A stretch of DNA of 64,000 nt. It comes from Escherichia coli. GTDB taxonomy: Bacteria > Pseudomonadota > Gammaproteobacteria > Enterobacterales > Enterobacteriaceae. Below, piece by piece: positions 1,878-43,501 of this stretch. The first letter of the stretch is position 1, and each line of letters opens with the position of its first letter. The DNA lies in assembly GCF_050920415.1 (NCBI RefSeq), contig NZ_CP169309.1. One strand, given 5' to 3'. Below the pieces are notes generated by a model. The model did not search any database. It was not told where the DNA came from and saw only the letters and a list, made by a program, of their open reading frames with translations. Position numbers and translations under genes: made by a program.

Positions 1878-2256
1878 ATTCACCTTACCTAATTTGATTC
1901 TTCCAGGAATGCGTCGCACGTTGATAAACCTTCCACTGGCAACGAGTTACCGATATGGACTCGTTCTCTGCGGATATCAACCCCTTGTCGTGACTCTGTT
2001 CACGAAAATTCAGGTGACTGAGTTAACAGGTCTTGGCCTACAGGCGCTATAGCACGACGGAATTTTGGTCGAATGTCAAGCAAATCTATTGCCAGATTGA
2101 CGAAAGCGTCACACTGTACCTGATAAAATCCGATACGCAACTTTATTAGCATGCAAAATCCAAAGTTACCAGTAAGGCGCTCTTGCCACCAGCGTGGTAT
2201 ATTTGTCTGCAAGCCATGCCTGGCGTAGACTAATGTCCTTGTTTAAGGAGTAAATA

Positions 2257-2508
2257 ATGAACAAAGAGACACAACCCATCGACCGCGAAACGCTGTTGAA
2301 AGAGGCCAATAAAATCATTCGTGAGCATGAGGATACGCTCGCAGGGATTGAAGCCACCGGCGTCACGCAGCGTAATGGCGTGCTGGTATTTACCGGCGAC
2401 TACTTTTTAGATGAACAAGGATTGCCAACAGCCAAAAGCACCGCGGTGTTTAATATGTTCAAACACCTGGCCCATGTGCTTTCAGAAAAATATCACCTGG
2501 TTGATTAA
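2257..2508 (+). CDS. yciN: Small conserved protein YciN (83 aa)
   Basis: Track [33 protein letters not shown] recognised as YciN; lies between topA and sohB. Confidence 0.8.
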
Positions 2509-2543
2509 AGCAAAACGCGAGGTCTTACCCTCGCGTTTGTCTT

Positions 2544-3593
2544 TTACATCAATGGCTTTTGCCCCCGCTGCCACCAGCGTAGCAACAATCGATCAGCGCT
2601 CTCTGCCGCGCTGCCGGTGAATCGGTCAATGAGTCGTTTACGCTGCATATAGCGTACATTGACCACTTCACGGCCTTCCATCAGGCTAAGAATAACTTCA
2701 TCACTGGTGTTGATTTCATCAACCAGGCCTTTCTCTACCGCCTGTTGTCCGTACCAGTGTTCACCCGTTGCCACCTGTTCAATATCCAGAGACGGACGCA
2801 TACGCTTCACAAAATCTTTAAATAACTGATGCGTTTCGTTCAGCTCTTCGCGGAATTTCTCCCGCCCTTCTTCGGTGTTTTCACCCAGCAAGGTCAGCGT
2901 GCGCTTATACTGCCCGGCGGTGTGCAGTTCGATATCAATATCTTTGCTTTTCAGGAAGCGGTTAAAGTTGGGCATTTGCGCCACCACCCCAATGGAACCC
3001 ACAATAGCAAACGGTGCGGAAACAATTTTGTCCGCCACACAGGCCATCATGTAACCGCCGCTGGCAGCAACTTTGTCTACCGTAACAGTTAAAGGAATGT
3101 TTTTATCACGCAGACGCTGCAGCTGCGAAGCCGCCAGCCCGTAACCATGCACCATGCCACCAGGGCTTTCCAGACGTAGCACAACCTGATCCTGCGGTTT
3201 AAATGCTGCGAGTACCGCCGTTATCTCTTCACGTAGCGAGTTCACTTCATGGGCGTCCATGCTGCCTTTAAAATCCAGCACCCAGACGCGAGGTTTACTG
3301 TCAGTTGCCACCTCGCCCAGTTTGGCTTTCGCTTTTGCGGCTTTCGCTTCTTGCTTGTGCTTTTTCTTCTGCGCTTTATGCCACTGTTTTTGCTGATGAG
3401 TGTCCATCAGCGCCGCGGCCAGTTCTTCTTTCATCTCCTTATACTGTTCGCTGAGATTGTTGACCCGTAACTCGCCACGCTGGCGTTTATTACGTTGAGC
3501 AACATTGACAATAATGGCGGCAATCGCCGCAATCGCTAGCACAACGGTAACGATTTTCGCCAAAAACAAACCATATTCAGACAACAATTCCAC
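2544..3593 (-). CDS. sohB: Inner-membrane peptidase SohB (S49 family)
   Basis: 349-aa ORF with N-terminal membrane helix and S49 peptidase-like body; conserved position. Confidence 0.88.
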   Translation of the reverse strand: MELLSEYGLFLAKIVTVVLAIAAIAAIIVNVAQRNKRQRGELRVNNLSEQYKEMKEELAAALMDTHQQKQWHKAQKKKHKQEAKAAKAKAKLGEVATDSKPRVWVLDFKGSMDAHEVNSLREEITAVLAAFKPQDQVVLRLESPGGMVHGYGLAASQLQRLRDKNIPLTVTVDKVAASGGYMMACVADKIVSAPFAIVGSIGVVAQMPNFNRFLKSKDIDIELHTAGQYKRTLTLLGENTEEGREKFREELNETHQLFKDFVKRMRPSLDIEQVATGEHWYGQQAVEKGLVDEINTSDEVILSLMEGREVVNVRYMQRKRLIDRFTGSAAESADRLLLRWWQRGQKPLM

Positions 3594-4571: not shown

Positions 4572-5158
4572 GTGATGAACGCTACCAACAGCGTCAGCAG
4601 CGTGTAAAAGATAAAGTGGATGCCCGTGTGGCCCAGGCCCAGGATGAACGCGGTATTATCATCGTCTTTACCGGCAATGGAAAAGGCAAAACCACCGCGG
4701 CATTTGGTACAGCAGCTCGCGCAGTTGGTCACGGAAAAAAAGTGGGCGTCGTGCAGTTTATTAAAGGCACCTGGCCTAATGGCGAACGAAAACTGCTGGA
4801 GCCACACGGCGTTGAGTTTCAAGTGATGGCAACGGGCTTTACCTGGGATACGCAAAACCGCGAATCTGATACCGCAGCCTGCCGTGAAGTCTGGCAACAT
4901 GCCAAACGAATGCTGGCAGATGCTTCACTGGATATGGTTTTGCTCGATGAGCTGACGTATATGGTGGCGTATGACTATTTACCACTGGATGAAGTGGTGC
5001 AGGCGTTAAATGAACGTCCACATCAACAGACGGTGATTATCACGGGTCGTGGTTGTCATCGGGATATTCTTGAACTGGCGGATACGGTAAGTGAATTACG
5101 CCCTGTCAAACATGCGTTTGATGCCGGTGTTAAGGCGCAAATCGGGATTGATTATTAA
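4568..5158 (+). CDS. btuR: Cob(I)alamin adenosyltransferase
   Basis: 196 aa with P-loop GNGKGKTTAAFG; ATGA overlap with the yciK stop. Confidence 0.9.
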   Translation: MSDERYQQRQQRVKDKVDARVAQAQDERGIIIVFTGNGKGKTTAAFGTAARAVGHGKKVGVVQFIKGTWPNGERKLLEPHGVEFQVMATGFTWDTQNRESDTAACREVWQHAKRMLADASLDMVLLDELTYMVAYDYLPLDEVVQALNERPHQQTVIITGRGCHRDILELADTVSELRPVKHAFDAGVKAQIGIDY

Positions 5159-5162
5159 GGGA

Positions 5163-5195
5163 AAGCACCTCAAAAGATCGCCTCTTGAGGTGCTT
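5163..5195. terminator. Hairpin shared by convergent btuR and the 102-aa ORF
   Basis: Perfect 11-bp inverted repeat aagcacctcaa / ttgaggtgctt with 11-nt loop; U-rich flank readable on both strands. Confidence 0.5.
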
Positions 5196-5210
5196 TAATC
5201 ATAATTATAT

Positions 5211-5519
5211 TCAAGCGGCAATAGCAAAACTCAGAATCCGTTTAATCTCATTCAAATGTCCCGGATATGCTTCATGATTCTCAGCGTCAACATCTTCAAT
5301 AAATAATATCAGTTCAGTAATTAACGCATTGGCATCTTCATAACTGATTCCGCTTAACTCTGGCGAAGTTTCAGTACCGTAGTTAATCGTCAGATTGTTC
5401 ATCACCGTGAGGATAAGGATAAAATATTTATGACAAACCTTGCAAGTGGTTTTGTTGCCCAGAGTATTATACAGCATATCAAGTAATGCCAGTATTCTAC
5501 GGTTTTGTACATCGTTCAT
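5211..5519 (-). CDS. Hypothetical 102-aa protein, no signal peptide; second gene of an AT-rich two-gene operon
   Basis: Strong AGGAGG Shine-Dalgarno about 8 nt upstream of ATG; starts 13 nt after the upstream ORF stop; AT-rich codons; no family recognised. Confidence 0.55.
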   Translation of the reverse strand: MNDVQNRRILALLDMLYNTLGNKTTCKVCHKYFILILTVMNNLTINYGTETSPELSGISYEDANALITELILFIEDVDAENHEAYPGHLNEIKRILSFAIAA

Positions 5520-5531
5520 AAAAAGCCCCTC

Positions 5532-6533
5532 CTATAACATTATTCCGCTGGCAATAAGTAATTTCGCCAGCCCCTCAGACGCCTTTAACCCACTAATGAC
5601 CTGTGCGCGTAATATTTCATTTAATCTGTTTTGTTCAGCTGCCGTGCGTGTTTTATTAGTGTATAAACCTTTTAGATAATCACCCTTATCTATAAAGGCA
5701 TTTAAAGCTTCAATCGCGGGCATTGCAGCAGCCGATGCCTGTAGTCTGGTTTCATTCACATTGATTACTGAACTTAGAAACTCCTTCCTGTTTTTCAGAG
5801 TGTTAAACTCTGTATTCTTAGAGTTTTTAGATACCGCATTATAATAAAGCATATTATTATGTACATTCGCAAAGGTATAATTTTCAATCTTATCGCCTTT
5901 TGTATAAATATCATTACGCAAAACAGTCATGTTTTTTATAAGTCTTACCCAATTTTTATCCGCCGTTTTACCTATTTTCCCAGCATTGACCTTTATTATA
6001 TATAACTCGTTGAAATAACTTACTAAATCTTTAACTGCCGCTGCCGATTCAGCTAAATCTTTGCTATGTGAAACATCAAGTAGTGTTTGCGCGTTGTTTG
6101 CGTGATCCAGAGCCTGTTTAAGTAATGTCACTTGCTGACTTTCTGTAGTTTTTATGTCTTCAGTCAAGAGCTCTACATAAGCACTCATGCTATTAATGAC
6201 TTCCATTGAAGCCAGTAGTTTCTCTTTTTCGAATGGGACTAATTGTACTTTATCTGTTTTTTCTTCAGGGGGCCTGCATAATTTTCCACCCTGACCATCG
6301 TTCGCAACATCAATGGTATAATCAGGTCGCAATGCACAATCCGGATTAGTCGCATAAAAATTAACAAGGAAGTTTTCACGAGAAGCATAGTATTGTTTAA
6401 AGAAACTTGCATTCGCCGCAACCGCCTTGTTACCCGCAGTAATAACAGTTTCAGCTTGCTCATTTTTCAATGCTTCAGTTGCACAACCTGAAAGCATTAA
6501 CAGCGATAGAAATAATCCACTATATCTAATCAT
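5532..6533 (-). CDS. Hypothetical lipoprotein (333 aa)
   Basis: N-terminus MIRYSGLFLSLLMLSGC is a signal peptide with lipobox L-S-G-C; +2 residue Ala predicts outer-membrane sorting; GAGGTG Shine-Dalgarno upstream; AT-rich; Asn/Lys-rich, probably helical; no family recognised. Confidence 0.6.
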   Translation of the reverse strand: MIRYSGLFLSLLMLSGCATEALKNEQAETVITAGNKAVAANASFFKQYYASRENFLVNFYATNPDCALRPDYTIDVANDGQGGKLCRPPEEKTDKVQLVPFEKEKLLASMEVINSMSAYVELLTEDIKTTESQQVTLLKQALDHANNAQTLLDVSHSKDLAESAAAVKDLVSYFNELYIIKVNAGKIGKTADKNWVRLIKNMTVLRNDIYTKGDKIENYTFANVHNNMLYYNAVSKNSKNTEFNTLKNRKEFLSSVINVNETRLQASAAAMPAIEALNAFIDKGDYLKGLYTNKTRTAAEQNRLNEILRAQVISGLKASEGLAKLLIASGIML

Positions 6534-6660
6534 AACCCACCTCTTGACGTTGAGTTTATCTCAGATAATTAAATAGTAATGTGGCTATTCCCTGGCATTA
6601 TTCATAAGCAAGTATGAAATTAAATTAAAATACTGCGACTATTTATCATGCTTCAAATGA

Positions 6661-6687
6661 AGAAAAGGCCCCGCAGGGCCTTTATTT
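6661..6687. terminator. Bidirectional hairpin terminator downstream of rluB
   Basis: ggccc-cgca-gggcc stem-loop flanked by A-run upstream and T-run downstream. Confidence 0.6.
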
Positions 6688-6702
6688 AATACTTAACTTA
6701 AA

Positions 6703-7578
6703 TTAACCGTTATTATTACGTCCACCAGAACGACGACCGCCGCTGACCTGGCTGTGACGTTTCACCGCACGACGAATTTGATTCGCCTTCATACGACGAC
6801 GGTCTTTTTCTACAGCAACTTTAGAGCTGGTTTCTGGCGGTAGTTCCACCAGCTCACGCAGATAGTTAGTCTGGGCAAGATCCAGCTCAGTCCAGCCACC
6901 GCGTGGCAGACCTTTCGGCAGTGGGATATCACCGTAACGCACGCGGATCAGACGGCTCACCTGCACACCAACAGCTTCCCAAAGACGACGAACTTCACGG
7001 TTACGGCCTTCGGTCAGAGTAACATTGTACCACTGGTTGATCCCTTCGCCGCCGCTGAACTTAATGGTTTTAAAGGCTGCCGGACCATCTTCCAGCTGCA
7101 CGCCACGACTCAAATCACGCAGTTTCGCGTCGTCAACCTGACCAAATACACGCACGGCATATTCACGTTCAACTTCACGGCTTGGATGCATTAGACGGTT
7201 TGCCAGTTCACCGTCGGTGGTAAACAGCAGGAGACCGCAGGTGTTAACGTCCAGACGACCTACGGCAATCCAGCGTGCACCGCGCAGTTTTGGCAGACGG
7301 TCAAATACCGTTGGACGCCCTTCCGGATCGTTACGGGTACACAACTCACCTTCCGGTTTGTAATAGGCCAGAACGCGACAAATTTGTTCAGCGGACTCAC
7401 GTACCGAAATCAGGTGACCATCGATACGGATTTTCAATCCAGGGGTAATTTCAACACGATCGCCGAGTTTAGCAATTTTGCCATCAACACTCACACGACC
7501 GGCTTCAATAATAGATTCGATTTCACGGCGAGAACCGTGGCCGGCACGCGCCAGCACTTTCTGTAGCTTTTCGCTCAT
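6703..7578 (-). CDS. rluB: 23S rRNA pseudouridine synthase B
   Basis: 291 aa, S4-like N-terminal domain plus RsuA-family body; C-terminal Arg/Gly-rich tail. Confidence 0.9.
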
Positions 7579-29588: not shown

Positions 29589-31220
29589 TTAGTGCTTCAC
29601 AATGTACATATTCCGGGTGTAGGTATTATCCAGCGGATCTTTGCCGGTATAGCCACCAACCCACGGTTTCACCAGACGCGCATTCACGTAGTAATAAACA
29701 GGAACAATGGCCGAATCCTTATCCAGCTGTTGTTCTGCTTTAGTGTACAGAGCTGTGCGCTGCGCCTCGTCAGTCGCTTTCAGCGTTTCCGCCATAATGC
29801 TGTCAAAGGCCGGGCTCTTATAATGCGCGGTATTCATCGAGCTGTTCGACAGCATGGTGTTCAGGAAGGAAGTTGGTTCGTTGTAGTCTGCACACCAGCC
29901 TGCACGGGCCACATCAAAAGTGCCCTGGTGACGGGTGTCGAGGAACGTTTTCCACTCCTGGTTAACCAGTTTGACGTTTACACCAATGTTTTTCTTCCAC
30001 AATGAAGAGGCAGCAATCGCCAGCTTTTTATGCAGATCGGAGGTGTTATACAACAGGTTGATGGTCAACGGTTTGTCTGCGGTATAACCCGCTTCAGCCA
30101 GCAGTTTTTTCGCTTCTTCGTTACGTTTTTCCTGGCTCCAGCCAAACCATTCCGGCTGAGTCAATTTTGCGCCATCAGTATACGGTGGAGTGTAACCATA
30201 GGCGGGCATGTCGCCCTGCGCTTTCACTTTATTAACAATGATATCGCGGTCCATACCCAGTTTCAGTGCGGTACGCACACGTACATCGTTGAATGGCGGT
30301 TTCTGGTTGTTAATTTCGTAATAATAAGTGCACAGGTATGGATCAACGTGAACTTCGTCCGGGATCTCTTTTTTCAGCTTCTGGAACAATTCGATCGGCA
30401 TGTTGTTATAAGTCATGTCGATTTCACCACTACGGTAGCGGTTGACATCGGTAACTTCAGAAGCAATAGGCAAATAGGTTACCTGGTTAATAACGGTTTT
30501 CGCGTTGTTCCAGTAGGTTGGGCTGCGTTCAAGAACGATTCGTTCGTTTACGACCCAATCTTTTAAGGTATAGGCACCGTTGGTGATGATATTACCAGGC
30601 TGGGTCCATTTTTCGCCGAATTTCTCGATAGCGGCTTTTGGCACCGGTGAAGTTGATGGGTGAACAAGTAATTTATAGAAGTACGGAACAGGTTCACTTA
30701 AGGTGACTTCTAATGTGTGATCATCAATAGCTTTCACGCCGAGATCGGTAATCGGTTTTTTCCCTTCAAGAATTTCATCAATACCGGCGATATGCCCATA
30801 TTGCAGATAACTGGCATACGGAGAAGCGGTGTTTGGATCAACAGAACGTTGCCAGCTATACACAAAGTCTTGTGCTGTGACTGGCGTGCCATCAGACCAT
30901 TTCGCATCTTTACGCAAATGGAAGGTCCAGACTTTCGCGTCTTTATTATCCCAGGATTCAGCGACGCCAGGTGCCGGATGACCGTCAAGATCGCTGACCA
31001 GTAAGCCTTCAAACAGGTCTCGGCTGATATTAGACTCCGGAACACCTTCAATTTTATGCGGATCTAATGACTGAACTTCTGAACCATTGTTACGTACCAG
31101 CGTTTGTTTTTCCGCCAGTGTGACGCCTGCGGGTACATCAGCTGCCAGCGCGACATTCCCTGCCATAAGCGCAGCCAGAACGCCAGCTGCTACTAAACTT
31201 CTCTTGGTGATGTTGGTCAT
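29589..31220 (-). CDS. oppA: Periplasmic oligopeptide-binding protein OppA (543 aa)
   Basis: Signal peptide MTNITKRSLVAAGVLAALMAGNVALA; start at internal ATG matches known length. Confidence 0.95.
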   Translation of the reverse strand: MTNITKRSLVAAGVLAALMAGNVALAADVPAGVTLAEKQTLVRNNGSEVQSLDPHKIEGVPESNISRDLFEGLLVSDLDGHPAPGVAESWDNKDAKVWTFHLRKDAKWSDGTPVTAQDFVYSWQRSVDPNTASPYASYLQYGHIAGIDEILEGKKPITDLGVKAIDDHTLEVTLSEPVPYFYKLLVHPSTSPVPKAAIEKFGEKWTQPGNIITNGAYTLKDWVVNERIVLERSPTYWNNAKTVINQVTYLPIASEVTDVNRYRSGEIDMTYNNMPIELFQKLKKEIPDEVHVDPYLCTYYYEINNQKPPFNDVRVRTALKLGMDRDIIVNKVKAQGDMPAYGYTPPYTDGAKLTQPEWFGWSQEKRNEEAKKLLAEAGYTADKPLTINLLYNTSDLHKKLAIAASSLWKKNIGVNVKLVNQEWKTFLDTRHQGTFDVARAGWCADYNEPTSFLNTMLSNSSMNTAHYKSPAFDSIMAETLKATDEAQRTALYTKAEQQLDKDSAIVPVYYYVNARLVKPWVGGYTGKDPLDNTYTRNMYIVKH

Positions 31221-31920
31221 TGTTTTTTGGACTCCCTCATTATAATTACTGGTATTAACCAGCATGTGTAATCCCGGATTGGGACCCTGCACAGGCTCGG
31301 AGACTTTCTGCTGTCAGGTTACTTTATCGTTACGGATTGCTATCACCGACTTTATTTATTCTGGTGATTCAGACGATCACCTTATGTCGATTCGTACTGT
31401 GTCTCCCCTGTCGAGACACATTATTCTTTTGCGACGCTCTTTAATTGTTAATTATTCTCATTACCAATAAAAATCGCCTGGCGGTTGGTCGGAAAGTACC
31501 AAATGCGCTTCTTACTCGCCAATACATTTTGCAAAATTGTTAAGCAATTCTCTTTTATTGACAGTGTCAGAATCTACAGCGCGCGTCCATGCTTTAACAA
31601 ACATCTTTCAATTCAATCAAATAGAGAACTGTTAAGCATGTCTATCTTTTCTGGCTATAGATTAAGTCGTGAAATACACAATAATTTAACAAACGATTAT
31701 TATTTAGCACTTTCCTCTACCAAAGGCAGTGGAATTACTAATATCATTTCAATTATTCTTCAGCAAGCCCAGGATTATGATGTGGCGAAAATAACATGAT
31801 GGTGAGGCGAAGCAGTTAAGGAAATCCTTATAACTAACTGTAATTTCAGAGGAATATTCTTACCTATTCCTTTTGCCTTTGCTTTTGATAACTGCGCGGG
31901 AACAAAGTAAAAATAATGAC

Positions 31921-31948
31921 GAAAAAACGGAGCATGTCAGCTCCGTTT
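31921..31948 (-). terminator. ychE rho-independent terminator
   Basis: acggagc-atgtca-gctccgt hairpin followed by U-run on the minus strand. Confidence 0.7.
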
Positions 31949-31961
31949 CATTTGAAAGGAA

Positions 31962-32609
31962 TTAATTAAGCAGGCCGGGGAAAATCCCCTTAATACCAGT
32001 AACGATAAATTCAATCCCCAACGCCATCAGCAATAGCCCCATAATACGCGTAATCACGTTGATGCCGGTCTGGCGTAAAACCCGTACCAGCCACGGTGCC
32101 ATGCGGAACAATCCCCAGCAGCATAAAGCAAACAATGCAATAGCCACAAAGAAACCAAATAGATAGCTAATACTGTGATAACGCGTACCCCAGACGATGG
32201 TGGAACTAATCGCCCCTGGCCCCGCCATCAACGGCAACGCCAACGGCACCACACCAATGCTTTCACGTACCGCGGTTTCTGATTTTTCTTGCTTGTTCTG
32301 TTTATCCTCGCCAAGCTTGCCGCTGATCATCGACATCGCTATTGTCACCACCAGGATGCCACCGGCGATACGGAATGAATCAATTGATATACCAAAAAGT
32401 TGCAGAATCGTGTCGCCGAGAAAAAGCGAGATCCACAAGATAATGGCCACAGACAGGTTGGCTGTAAGGTTCGTTTTGTTTCGCGCTGCCGCTGTCTGAT
32501 AACTGGTCATGCTGATAAAGACGGGAATAATCCCTACCGGGTTGACCAGCGCAAATAACCCGATGAAAAATTTGAAGTAAACGGGAAAATCAAAAAGGGT
32601 CTGAATCAC
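31962..32609 (-). CDS. ychE: MarC-family inner membrane protein YchE
   Basis: 215-aa hydrophobic protein recognised as YchE. Confidence 0.85.
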   Translation of the reverse strand: MIQTLFDFPVYFKFFIGLFALVNPVGIIPVFISMTSYQTAAARNKTNLTANLSVAIILWISLFLGDTILQLFGISIDSFRIAGGILVVTIAMSMISGKLGEDKQNKQEKSETAVRESIGVVPLALPLMAGPGAISSTIVWGTRYHSISYLFGFFVAIALFALCCWGLFRMAPWLVRVLRQTGINVITRIMGLLLMALGIEFIVTGIKGIFPGLLN

Positions 32610-33085
32610 GGTTAGCTCCGAAGCAAAAGCCGGATAATGTTAGCCATAAATAAGGTTAAAAAGACGCGCTGACAATACGCCTTTTGACAGCATTTTTCAC
32701 CTCCTAACTACTTAAAATTGCTATCATTCGTTATTGTTATCTAGTTGTGCAAAACATGATAATGTAGCCAACAAATCATACTACAATTTATTAACTGTTA
32801 GCTATAATGGCGAAAAGCCATGCTGAAAGGTGTCAGCTTTGCAAAAATTTGATTTGGATCACGTAATCAGTACCCAGAAGTGAGTAATCTTGCTTACGCC
32901 ACCTGGAAGTGACGCATTAGAGATAATAACTCTAATGTTTAAACTCTTTTAGTAAATCACAGTGAGTGTGAGCGCGAGTAAGCTTTTGATTTTCATCGGT
33001 TAAGCAAATCATCACCGCACTGACTATACTCTCGTATTCGAGCAGATGATTTACTAAAAAAGTTTAACATTATCAGGAGAGCATT

Positions 33086-42585: not shown

Positions 42586-42670
<85 letters not shown>

Positions 42671-42704
42671 TCTCAAGCATTACATCAAAATTTGAATTAT
42701 CCCT

Positions 42705-42789
<85 letters not shown>

Positions 42790-43501
42790 TCACTTTCAAA
42801 AGTTCCTGAAATCCCCAACAAATCCACAATTAAATATTCTGCCCATGCGGGGAAGGATGAGAAGCTTCGACTAAGGTTCGACTCGAGCGCCAGCGAGAGA
42901 GCGTTGCCGCAGGCAACGACCCGTAGGGCGAAGCGCGCAGCGCTGAGTAATCCTTCCCCCACCACCATCACTTTCAAAAACCCCTGTATTCTCCAACGAA
43001 TCCGTAACTGAATATTCTGCCCATGCGGGGAAGGATGAGAAGCTTCGACTAAGGTTCGACTCGAGCGCCAGCGAGAGAGCGTTGCCGCAGGCAACGACCC
43101 GTAGGGCGAAGCGCGCAGCGCTGAGTAATCCTTCCCCCACCACCATCACTTTCAAAAACCCCTGTATTCTCCAACGAATCCGTAACTGAATATTCTGCCC
43201 ATGCGGGGAAGGATGAGAAGCTTCGACTAAGGTTCGACTCGAGCGCCAGCGAGAGAGCGTTGCCGCAGGCAACGACCCGTAGGGCGAAGCGCGCAGCGCT
43301 GAGTAATCCTTCCCCCACCACCATCACTTTCAAAAACCCCTGTATTCTCCAACGAATCCGTAACTGAATATTCTGCCCATGCGGGGAAGGATGAGAAGCT
43401 TTGACTAAGGTTCGACTCGAGCGCCAGCGAGAGAGCATTGCCGCAGGCAACGACCCGTAGGGCGAAGCGCGCAGCGCTGAGTAATCCTTCCCCCACCACC
43501 A
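42790..43501 (+). repeat. Four tandem 178-bp direct repeats (rtT region), each ending in the last ~19 nt of tRNA-Tyr
   Basis: Unit boundaries 42790-42967, 42968-43145, 43146-43323, 43324-43501; copies 2-4 near-identical, copy 1 diverged at its 5' end; each ends ccttcccccaccacca. Confidence 0.9.

Follow-up and report, generated by a model that had tools for sequence, protein, structure and literature searches.

The interval between ychE and oppA in a 64,000-nucleotide stretch of Escherichia coli DNA (hereafter the window) is very probably the region from which the oppABCDF oligopeptide-transporter operon is controlled, at the transcriptional and post-transcriptional levels. The biology of this interval is already known; the region is well studied and published in E. 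coli K-12. As the control region of oppABCDF it is textbook-level material and matters little as a hit of the scan. Published accounts of the oppA promoter and leader in K-12 include Igarashi et al. 1997 and PMC9988348. Comparison of 76 sequences shows that Enterobacteriaceae have kept the leader length, two promoters, an RNase E site, a MicF site and five helices.

The interval occupies positions 31221–31961 and measures 741 bp from the ychE stop codon to the oppA start codon. Gene order in the window is topA ... trp ... oppFDCBA–ychE–adhE .... Both genes that flank the gap are on the minus strand, which places it where the promoter and leader of oppA belong.

29589–31220, minus strand: oppA, start codon ATG at 31220–31218
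31962–32609, minus strand: ychE, stop codon TAA at 31964–31962

The first-pass annotation had described an AT-rich, untranslated interval of about 740 bp upstream of oppA, and the interval is real and lies exactly where it was placed. Its GC content is 0.379, versus 0.496 in the whole window and 0.48 in the two flanking genes. Values as low or lower are found in 1.5% of 741-bp windows, and all others of this kind lie at approximately 5151–6750. The description of the interval as the largest non-coding gap is true with one caveat. It is the longest gap without an accepted gene, but the purU–narI interval is longer (1,244 bp), though occupied by two tRNA-Tyr genes and four RtT repeats. The next protein-free gaps by size are of approximately 603 bp (tdk–hns) and then approximately 400 bp. 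The ranking is based on the RefSeq annotation of a near-identical genome, NZ_CP169399.1 (strain MFDS1022581), which differs from the window at 3 of 64,000 positions.

The end of the gap next to ychE is occupied by the terminator of that gene, which had been noticed before and is present.

31949–31920, minus strand: ychE intrinsic terminator, hairpin GAAACGGAGC-UGACAU-GCUCCGUUUU

It begins 13 nt past the ychE stop codon. The hairpin (31949–31924) has a predicted energy of −15.6 kcal/mol, and a run of six U (31927–31922) forms the end of its 3′ arm and the tail. Four stem pairs are retained in 60–66 of the 76 sequences, with GC/AU exchanges across genera. Hairpin, U tract, closeness to the stop codon and a stem kept in relatives are those of a Rho-independent terminator.

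Approximately 510 of the 741 bp are 5′ UTR of oppA; the remainder holds the ychE terminator, promoter P1 and the sequence upstream of P1. In E. coli K-12, oppA has two transcription starts, P1 (+1) and P2 (+246) (Carrier, Lalaouna & Masse 2023, PMC9988348). The K-12 leader is processed by RNase E at +341, a position formerly called P3, pairs with MicF at +372..+393, carries an AU-rich translational enhancer just downstream and an Hfq site at +484..+492, and is bound by GcvB at the ribosome-binding site; translation of oppA in K-12 is stimulated by polyamine (PMC9988348). These positions were transferred to the window by alignment of K-12 and of a typical E. coli genome, after removal of the IS5 element and one CTAA target copy. 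Two primers of PMC9988348 served as anchors: the T7-oppA primer, identical in sequence in the window, fixes +341, and the reverse primer of the P1 fusion ends at +1. The primers of that paper also show that its numbering skips IS5. The sequences of P1, P2, the RNase E site, the MicF site, the Hfq site and the Shine-Dalgarno sequence are identical or nearly identical to those of K-12. A long regulated leader of oppA had been proposed for the interval; the proposal matches the K-12 experiments (PMC9988348), and all elements map onto the window. Where transcription starts, that the leader is cleaved and how small RNAs and Hfq act are carried over from the K-12 literature and assumed for this strain.

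31781–31796, minus strand: palindrome TGTTA-N6-CCACA, conserved in the alignment of 76 sequences
31738–31766, minus strand: P1 promoter, −35 TTGCTG at 31766–31761, 17-bp spacer, −10 TATTAG at 31743–31738
~31730 (31730 or 31729), minus strand: P1 transcription start, mapped from K-12 numbering
31221–31730, minus strand: oppA 5′ UTR from P1, approximately 510 nt, mapped from K-12 numbering
31493–31565, minus strand: P2 promoter with conserved upstream block, by alignment to K-12 P2 (+246)
31522–31517 and 31498–31493, minus strand: P2 −35 TTGGCG and −10 TACTTT, 18-bp spacer
~31485, minus strand: P2 transcription start, K-12 +246

Both promoter sequences stand at the K-12 positions in the alignment anchored by the primers of PMC9988348. 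Conservation in 75 species is 0.82–0.92 for the P1 block and 0.77–0.93 for the P2 promoter with 40 bp upstream of it. The P1 −10 hexamer ends in G in the window (TATTAG) and in T in the K-12 strain used for mapping P1 (TATTAT), and for this reason the strength of P1 may differ from that in K-12. A simple sigma-70 scan missed both P1 and P2 and found five promoter-like sites (2.3 expected). The sigma-70/terminator consensus scan also missed the ychE terminator on the minus strand. Its lone "terminator" (plus strand, 31398–31420) was rejected as the mirror image of leader hairpin H1, described below; the flanking T-run is not conserved. The promoter TTAACA-17-AAGAAT at 31451–31423, taken from in-vitro RpoD binding (PMC3946193), sits in a poorly conserved stretch and was likewise rejected.

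The palindrome at 31796–31781 is centred approximately 58 nt upstream of P1 and reads TGTTA-N6-TCACA in most genera. By comparison with the CRP consensus it resembles a CRP site and may be one. CRP is absent from the listed regulators of oppA. Lrp represses oppA transcription and gives a ChIP signal at the oppA promoter (10.1101/276808). H-NS and RNA polymerase holoenzyme bind the ychE>oppA spacer in vitro (PMC3946193). The low GC content of the gap would be that of promoter and UTR sequence binding nucleoid proteins (Lrp, H-NS) rather than that of foreign DNA.

A conservation profile across Enterobacteriaceae, proposed earlier as a check, was obtained from one scan of representative genomes with OppA. 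The scan gave 80 loci in Escherichia, Salmonella, Citrobacter, Klebsiella, Enterobacter, Kosakonia, Buttiauxella, Cedecea and others; the 75 loci holding both genes were compared. ychE is upstream of oppA in 75 of 75 loci, and the gap is 714–879 bp long (window and 75 other Enterobacteriaceae species). Sharp conserved blocks fall on both promoters, on the sites of RNase E and MicF and on the Hfq/Shine-Dalgarno block, all known elements of oppA. Per-base conservation in the 75 species is 0.83 for the RNase E site, 0.80–0.99 for the MicF site and 0.94 for the Hfq/Shine-Dalgarno block. The identity of the elements to K-12, their conservation in 75 species and the covariation of helices in the 3′ half of the leader, described below, are read directly from the alignments.

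31685–31725, minus strand: conserved block at +5..+45 of the P1 leader, conservation 0.69–0.85
31570–31680, minus strand: hypervariable leader spacer at approximately +50..+160, conservation 0.23–0.45 across genera

Sequence constraint on the stretch that separates P1 from P2 appears weak or absent. At 31700–31560 the window is 85% identical to typical E. coli. Of the four other Escherichia lineages compared, the closest, Escherichia sp. MOD1-EC7003, is 80% identical to the window (80–90% for E. coli), and the other three are 54–63% identical. OppA is 98–99% identical in all four of these lineages. On the sense strand, seven ATG-initiated upstream open reading frames of 8–30 codons are present and none is conserved; the best of them (31527–31441) is of comparable length in 29 of the 75 species and lacks a ribosome-binding site.

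The window carries a rare allele of the gap, approximately 94% identical to 5,405 of 5,424 E. coli records. In the MG1655 reference an IS5 element lies in the gap, at +24..+27 of the leader; its insertion target, CTAA at 31707–31704, lies within the conserved block at 31685–31725. These two facts, together with the low GC content (0.379), are what speaks for reading the gap as a leftover of mobile or horizontally acquired DNA, such as a decayed insertion. The window reads uninterrupted through the site of the K-12 insertion, with a single CTAA target copy and without IS5. The ychE–gap–oppA synteny, a similar gap length and collinear blocks occur in all 75 species that yielded both genes, and because of this synteny an origin from foreign DNA is rejected as almost certainly wrong.

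The one long open reading frame of the gap is antisense to the oppA leader and covers both promoter blocks.

31485–31799, plus strand: antisense open reading frame, 104 aa from TTG 31485
31503 and 31638, plus strand: alternative ATG starts of this frame, giving 98 aa and 53 aa, respectively

The frame is most likely a chance open frame over the P1 and P2 blocks, non-coding, and its RefSeq entry an annotation artefact. Had it been a real, young, E. coli-restricted gene (31503–31799), antisense to the leader, it would have in its favour that the NCBI pipeline annotates it in many complete E. coli genomes ("hypothetical protein" WP_001211521.1, 98 aa, or WP_000021855.1, at the same coordinates as the frame noted earlier), that it stays open in the window allele as well as in the typical one, although the two differ at 22 nucleotides, that a promoter-like site is present on the plus strand at 31675–31703, and that its stop-free run is somewhat long for the composition. 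The longest stop-free run in the gap has 115 codons, which exceeds the chance expectation only marginally: it is matched by 4.25% of 2,000 dinucleotide shuffles. Such a gene is very improbable. The frame is not maintained in the alignment, with internal stops or frameshifts in 75 of 75 other species, including three other Escherichia lineages whose OppA is approximately 99% identical. Purifying selection is not seen between the window and typical E. coli: codon differences are 13 non-synonymous and 4 synonymous, and the 22 nucleotide differences are spread evenly over codon positions (7:6:9). No match was found in Pfam or NCBIfam at E ≤ 1. Seemingly conserved peptide stretches are the P1 and P2 promoter blocks read backwards, kept regardless of frame. 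In K-12 the frame is interrupted by IS5. RefSeq calls vary: the near-identical genome has 53 aa (31638–31799), typical E. coli has 98 aa, and other genomes have no call. The first-pass annotation had doubted this frame, seeing no ribosome-binding site, and the doubt was justified: a weak GGAAAG precedes ATG 31503, nothing obvious precedes ATG 31638, the frame is broken in 75 species and no family is matched. The evidence argues that the RefSeq "hypothetical protein" of many complete E. coli genomes is no gene.

With the gap read as the control region of oppABCDF, its part nearest to oppA contains the sites of post-transcriptional control.

31386–31393, minus strand: RNase E site GA/AUCGAC, cut between GA and AUCGAC at ~31391, K-12 +341
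31339–31360, minus strand: MicF pairing site AAUAAAUAAAGUCGGUGAUAGC, K-12 +372..+393
31316–31338, minus strand: AU-rich stretch, enhancer in K-12 (PMC9988348 and alignment)
31248–31240, minus strand: Hfq site UAAUUAUAA, K-12 +484..+492, sequence as in K-12
31238–31232, minus strand: Shine-Dalgarno sequence GAGGGAG, as in K-12
31206–31230, minus strand: predicted GcvB R1 pairing region, C/A-rich, spanning the start codon and extending into the oppA coding sequence outside the gap

Duplexes with MicF and GcvB were predicted with the annotated K-12 small RNA genes. For MicF, the best duplex predicted anywhere in the leader coincides exactly with the published site (−24.8 kcal/mol versus −16.8 ± 2.8 for shuffles). 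The site is that of K-12 except for the last base, C instead of U, which turns a G·U pair with MicF nucleotide 1 into a G–C pair. The AU-rich stretch differs from K-12 at two positions, and its length and sequence are poorly conserved across genera. The GU-rich R1 region of GcvB has its best duplex in the leader at 31230–31206 (−23.1 kcal/mol), an energy no better than that of shuffles (−22.0 ± 2.4). For GcvB only the predicted location agrees with the binding at the ribosome-binding site reported in PMC9988348.

RNAalifold, run on 75 sequences over 31425–31195, gave five helices, H1–H5.

31420–31398, minus strand: H1, hairpin UGUGUCUC-GACAGGG-GAGACACA, just upstream of the RNase E site
31391–31386 (AUCGAC) with 31350–31345 (GUCGGU), minus strand: H2, linking the RNase E site with the MicF core
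31381–31363, minus strand: H3, hairpin GGUGAU-CGUCUGA-AUCACC, directly 5′ of the MicF site
31318–31311 with 31294–31286, minus strand: H4, CCUGACAG ... CUGUGCAGG, from RNAalifold
31262–31249, minus strand: H5, hairpin CUGGU-UAAU-ACCAG, from RNAalifold

Counted on the alignment, 93.3% of the cells of H1–H5 are standard pairs, versus 24–53% when the 3′ partners are slid; 259 cells are changed on both sides, versus 26–100 when slid. The covariation score is 0.368, versus at most 0.105 when slid, and is reached by 0 of 500 shuffles. Covariation is carried by four of the five helices, H1, H3, H4 and H5. H1 has a predicted energy of −12.2 kcal/mol and both-side changes in 16–33 sequences per pair. 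Changes on both sides occur at five of six pairs in H3 and at five of seven in H4, 94.5% of the cells of H4 being paired; in H5, three of five pairs covary. For H2, 99.8% of cells are paired and both strands are nearly invariant; this is compatible with pairing, which covariation does not prove.

A long-range helix between 31715–31702 and 31504–31491 forms part of the minimum-free-energy fold (z = −2.57); its pairing across species amounts to 80%, versus 29–48% when slid. It is not established: its columns are near-invariant and a U·U mismatch is found in most species. The block at 31685–31725 may, at a weak level of support, pair with 31504–31491. An Rfam scan of 30900–32300 with a permissive E-value gave three chance-level matches, all rejected: C0299 (17 bits versus a gathering score of 40), a C. 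elegans snoRNA and mir-399.

It is an improbable, speculative extension of these results that the end of the leader (approximately 200 nt, 31420–31249) may be a family-wide structured RNA module, in which H2 would couple MicF binding to RNase E access, IS5-free strains would possibly make an OppX-like sponge missed in K-12, and the +5..+45 block may pair with the P2 region. The mechanical coupling of MicF binding and RNase E access would follow from the pairing of the two sites in H2.

A small RNA from the interval had been left open in the first-pass annotation. This was a fair caveat: by the account given in PMC9988348, the Salmonella leader gives OppX and K-12 gives no stable fragment. The Salmonella oppA 5′ UTR is the source of OppX-L, OppX-M and OppX-S (410, 190 and 109 nt), a sponge of MicF (Matera et al. 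2022, as relayed in PMC9988348). The leader described here is of the same type of origin, an oppA 5′ UTR with MicF-complementary sequence. In addition to its function as a leader it could release a stable OppX-like RNA that titrates MicF and thereby de-represses ompF. Such a release is compatible with the control region of oppABCDF as the main explanation and is unlikely. It is favoured by the orthology of the Salmonella leader from which the sponge is reported, as far as PMC9988348 relates it, by the MicF site and its flanking helices H1–H3, conserved or covarying across 75 species, and by the window leader being without IS5, unlike the K-12 reference. At the Salmonella locus, a 410-nt RNA from the P1 equivalent would end 7 nt beyond the MicF site. 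The shorter forms do not fit: the lengths of 190 nt and 109 nt were compared with ends at P2 and at the RNase E site in Salmonella, and the distances do not match. In K-12 a Northern probe on the MicF site detected no stable leader fragment, and RIL-seq chimeras are not confined to the OppX boundaries (PMC9988348). In the window no terminator-like 3′ end is found past the MicF site, and no Rfam family matches in the interval.

As a control region of oppABCDF the interval would operate in the following order. Transcription of ychE would end at the intrinsic terminator at 31949–31920. P1, approximately 190 bp past this terminator, would start the 5′ UTR of approximately 510 nt near 31730, and P2, internal to the leader, would start near 31485. 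RNase E would cut the long transcript near 31391. MicF would pair at 31360–31339, a pairing that in K-12 raises translation via the adjacent AU-rich enhancer. Hfq (31248–31240) and GcvB (around the start codon) would repress initiation.

The closest known system is the oppA region of K-12. It is the same locus, with the same P1 and P2 blocks, RNase E, MicF, Hfq and Shine-Dalgarno/GcvB sites and a leader of approximately 510 nt. The window differs from K-12 by a 6-bp insertion upstream of P1 (approximately 31875–31882), by the C that extends the MicF duplex by one G–C pair and by a rare version of the +30..+170 spacer, approximately 15% divergent. K-12, the strain used for the dissection of the region, is itself atypical: its leader contains IS5, and its P1 −10 hexamer has a base that improves the match to the consensus. 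IS5-free wild E. coli such as this strain may keep the ancestral P1. The atypicality of K-12 bears on the discrepancy between E. coli and Salmonella, that is, activation by MicF versus an OppX sponge. OppX of Salmonella comes from an orthologous leader, and the MicF site and the neighbouring covarying hairpins are common to both. Within the account in PMC9988348, stable OppX fragments belong to Salmonella; in E. coli K-12, MicF instead activates oppA translation.

Control region of oppA, 741 bp (31221-31961), between ychE and oppA, both on the minus strand. Contains two oppA promoters on the same strand, P1 and P2, with transcription starts placed by alignment to K-12 at ~31730 and ~31485. The leader spacer of the window (31560-31700), the variable stretch between the two promoters, is a rare allele. 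Identity of the whole interval to the window is at least 99% in 3 of 5,424 E. coli records and 90-95% in 5,405 of them; the flanking genes, in contrast, differ by just 1-3%. No match to the spacer allele is found among the four other Escherichia lineages sampled. In the region 31800-31900 there is, in addition, a 6-bp insertion, located near 31875-31882.

The AT-richness of the interval is matched in the window by one other stretch, 5151-6750 (GC ~0.36), which may be a small accessory insertion. Two genes lie there, between cobO and rluB, neither with a Pfam or PADLOC match:

5211-5519, minus strand, 'hypothetical protein' gene, 102 aa
5532-6533, minus strand, 'hypothetical protein' gene, 333 aa

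Directly upstream of ychE, the 17-aa small protein YchT is annotated by RefSeq at 32640-32693 on the minus strand. Between purU and narI, the stretch 42586-43501 holds two tRNA-Tyr genes and, after them, a tandem array of four RtT sRNA repeats.

A palindrome upstream of P1 is conserved in the alignment:

31781-31796, TGTTA-N6-CCACA, centre ~58 nt upstream of P1

In most genera it reads TGTTA-N6-TCACA. Judged by its sequence, the palindrome looks like a CRP site; CRP is absent from the listed regulators of oppA.

Transcripts from P1 possibly form a 14-bp long-range helix, in which 31702-31715 (the +16..+29 block, counted from the P1 start) would pair with 31491-31504 in the P2 -10 region. The two arms are 80% paired across 76 sequences, versus 29-48% when slid, but the aligned columns are almost invariant. 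Folding of the P1-P2 segment gives z = -2.57.

The MG1655 reference of K-12 is interrupted in the P1 leader:

2000-3194 (own numbering of the K-12 MG1655 ychE-oppA locus), IS5

The target is CTAA at +24..+27, equivalent to 31704-31707 of the window, and the insertion point falls within the conserved leader block +5..+45. Published numbering of the K-12 oppA leader leaves IS5 out, and loss of this element from the oppA leader is reported for some K-12 derivatives (PMC10044804).

By alignment, the P1 -10 hexamer (window 31738) is TATTAG in the window, in a typical E. coli genome and in all 75 other Enterobacteriaceae species, but TATTAT in K-12 MG1655; the strain used to characterise P1 thus has a consensus-improving base.
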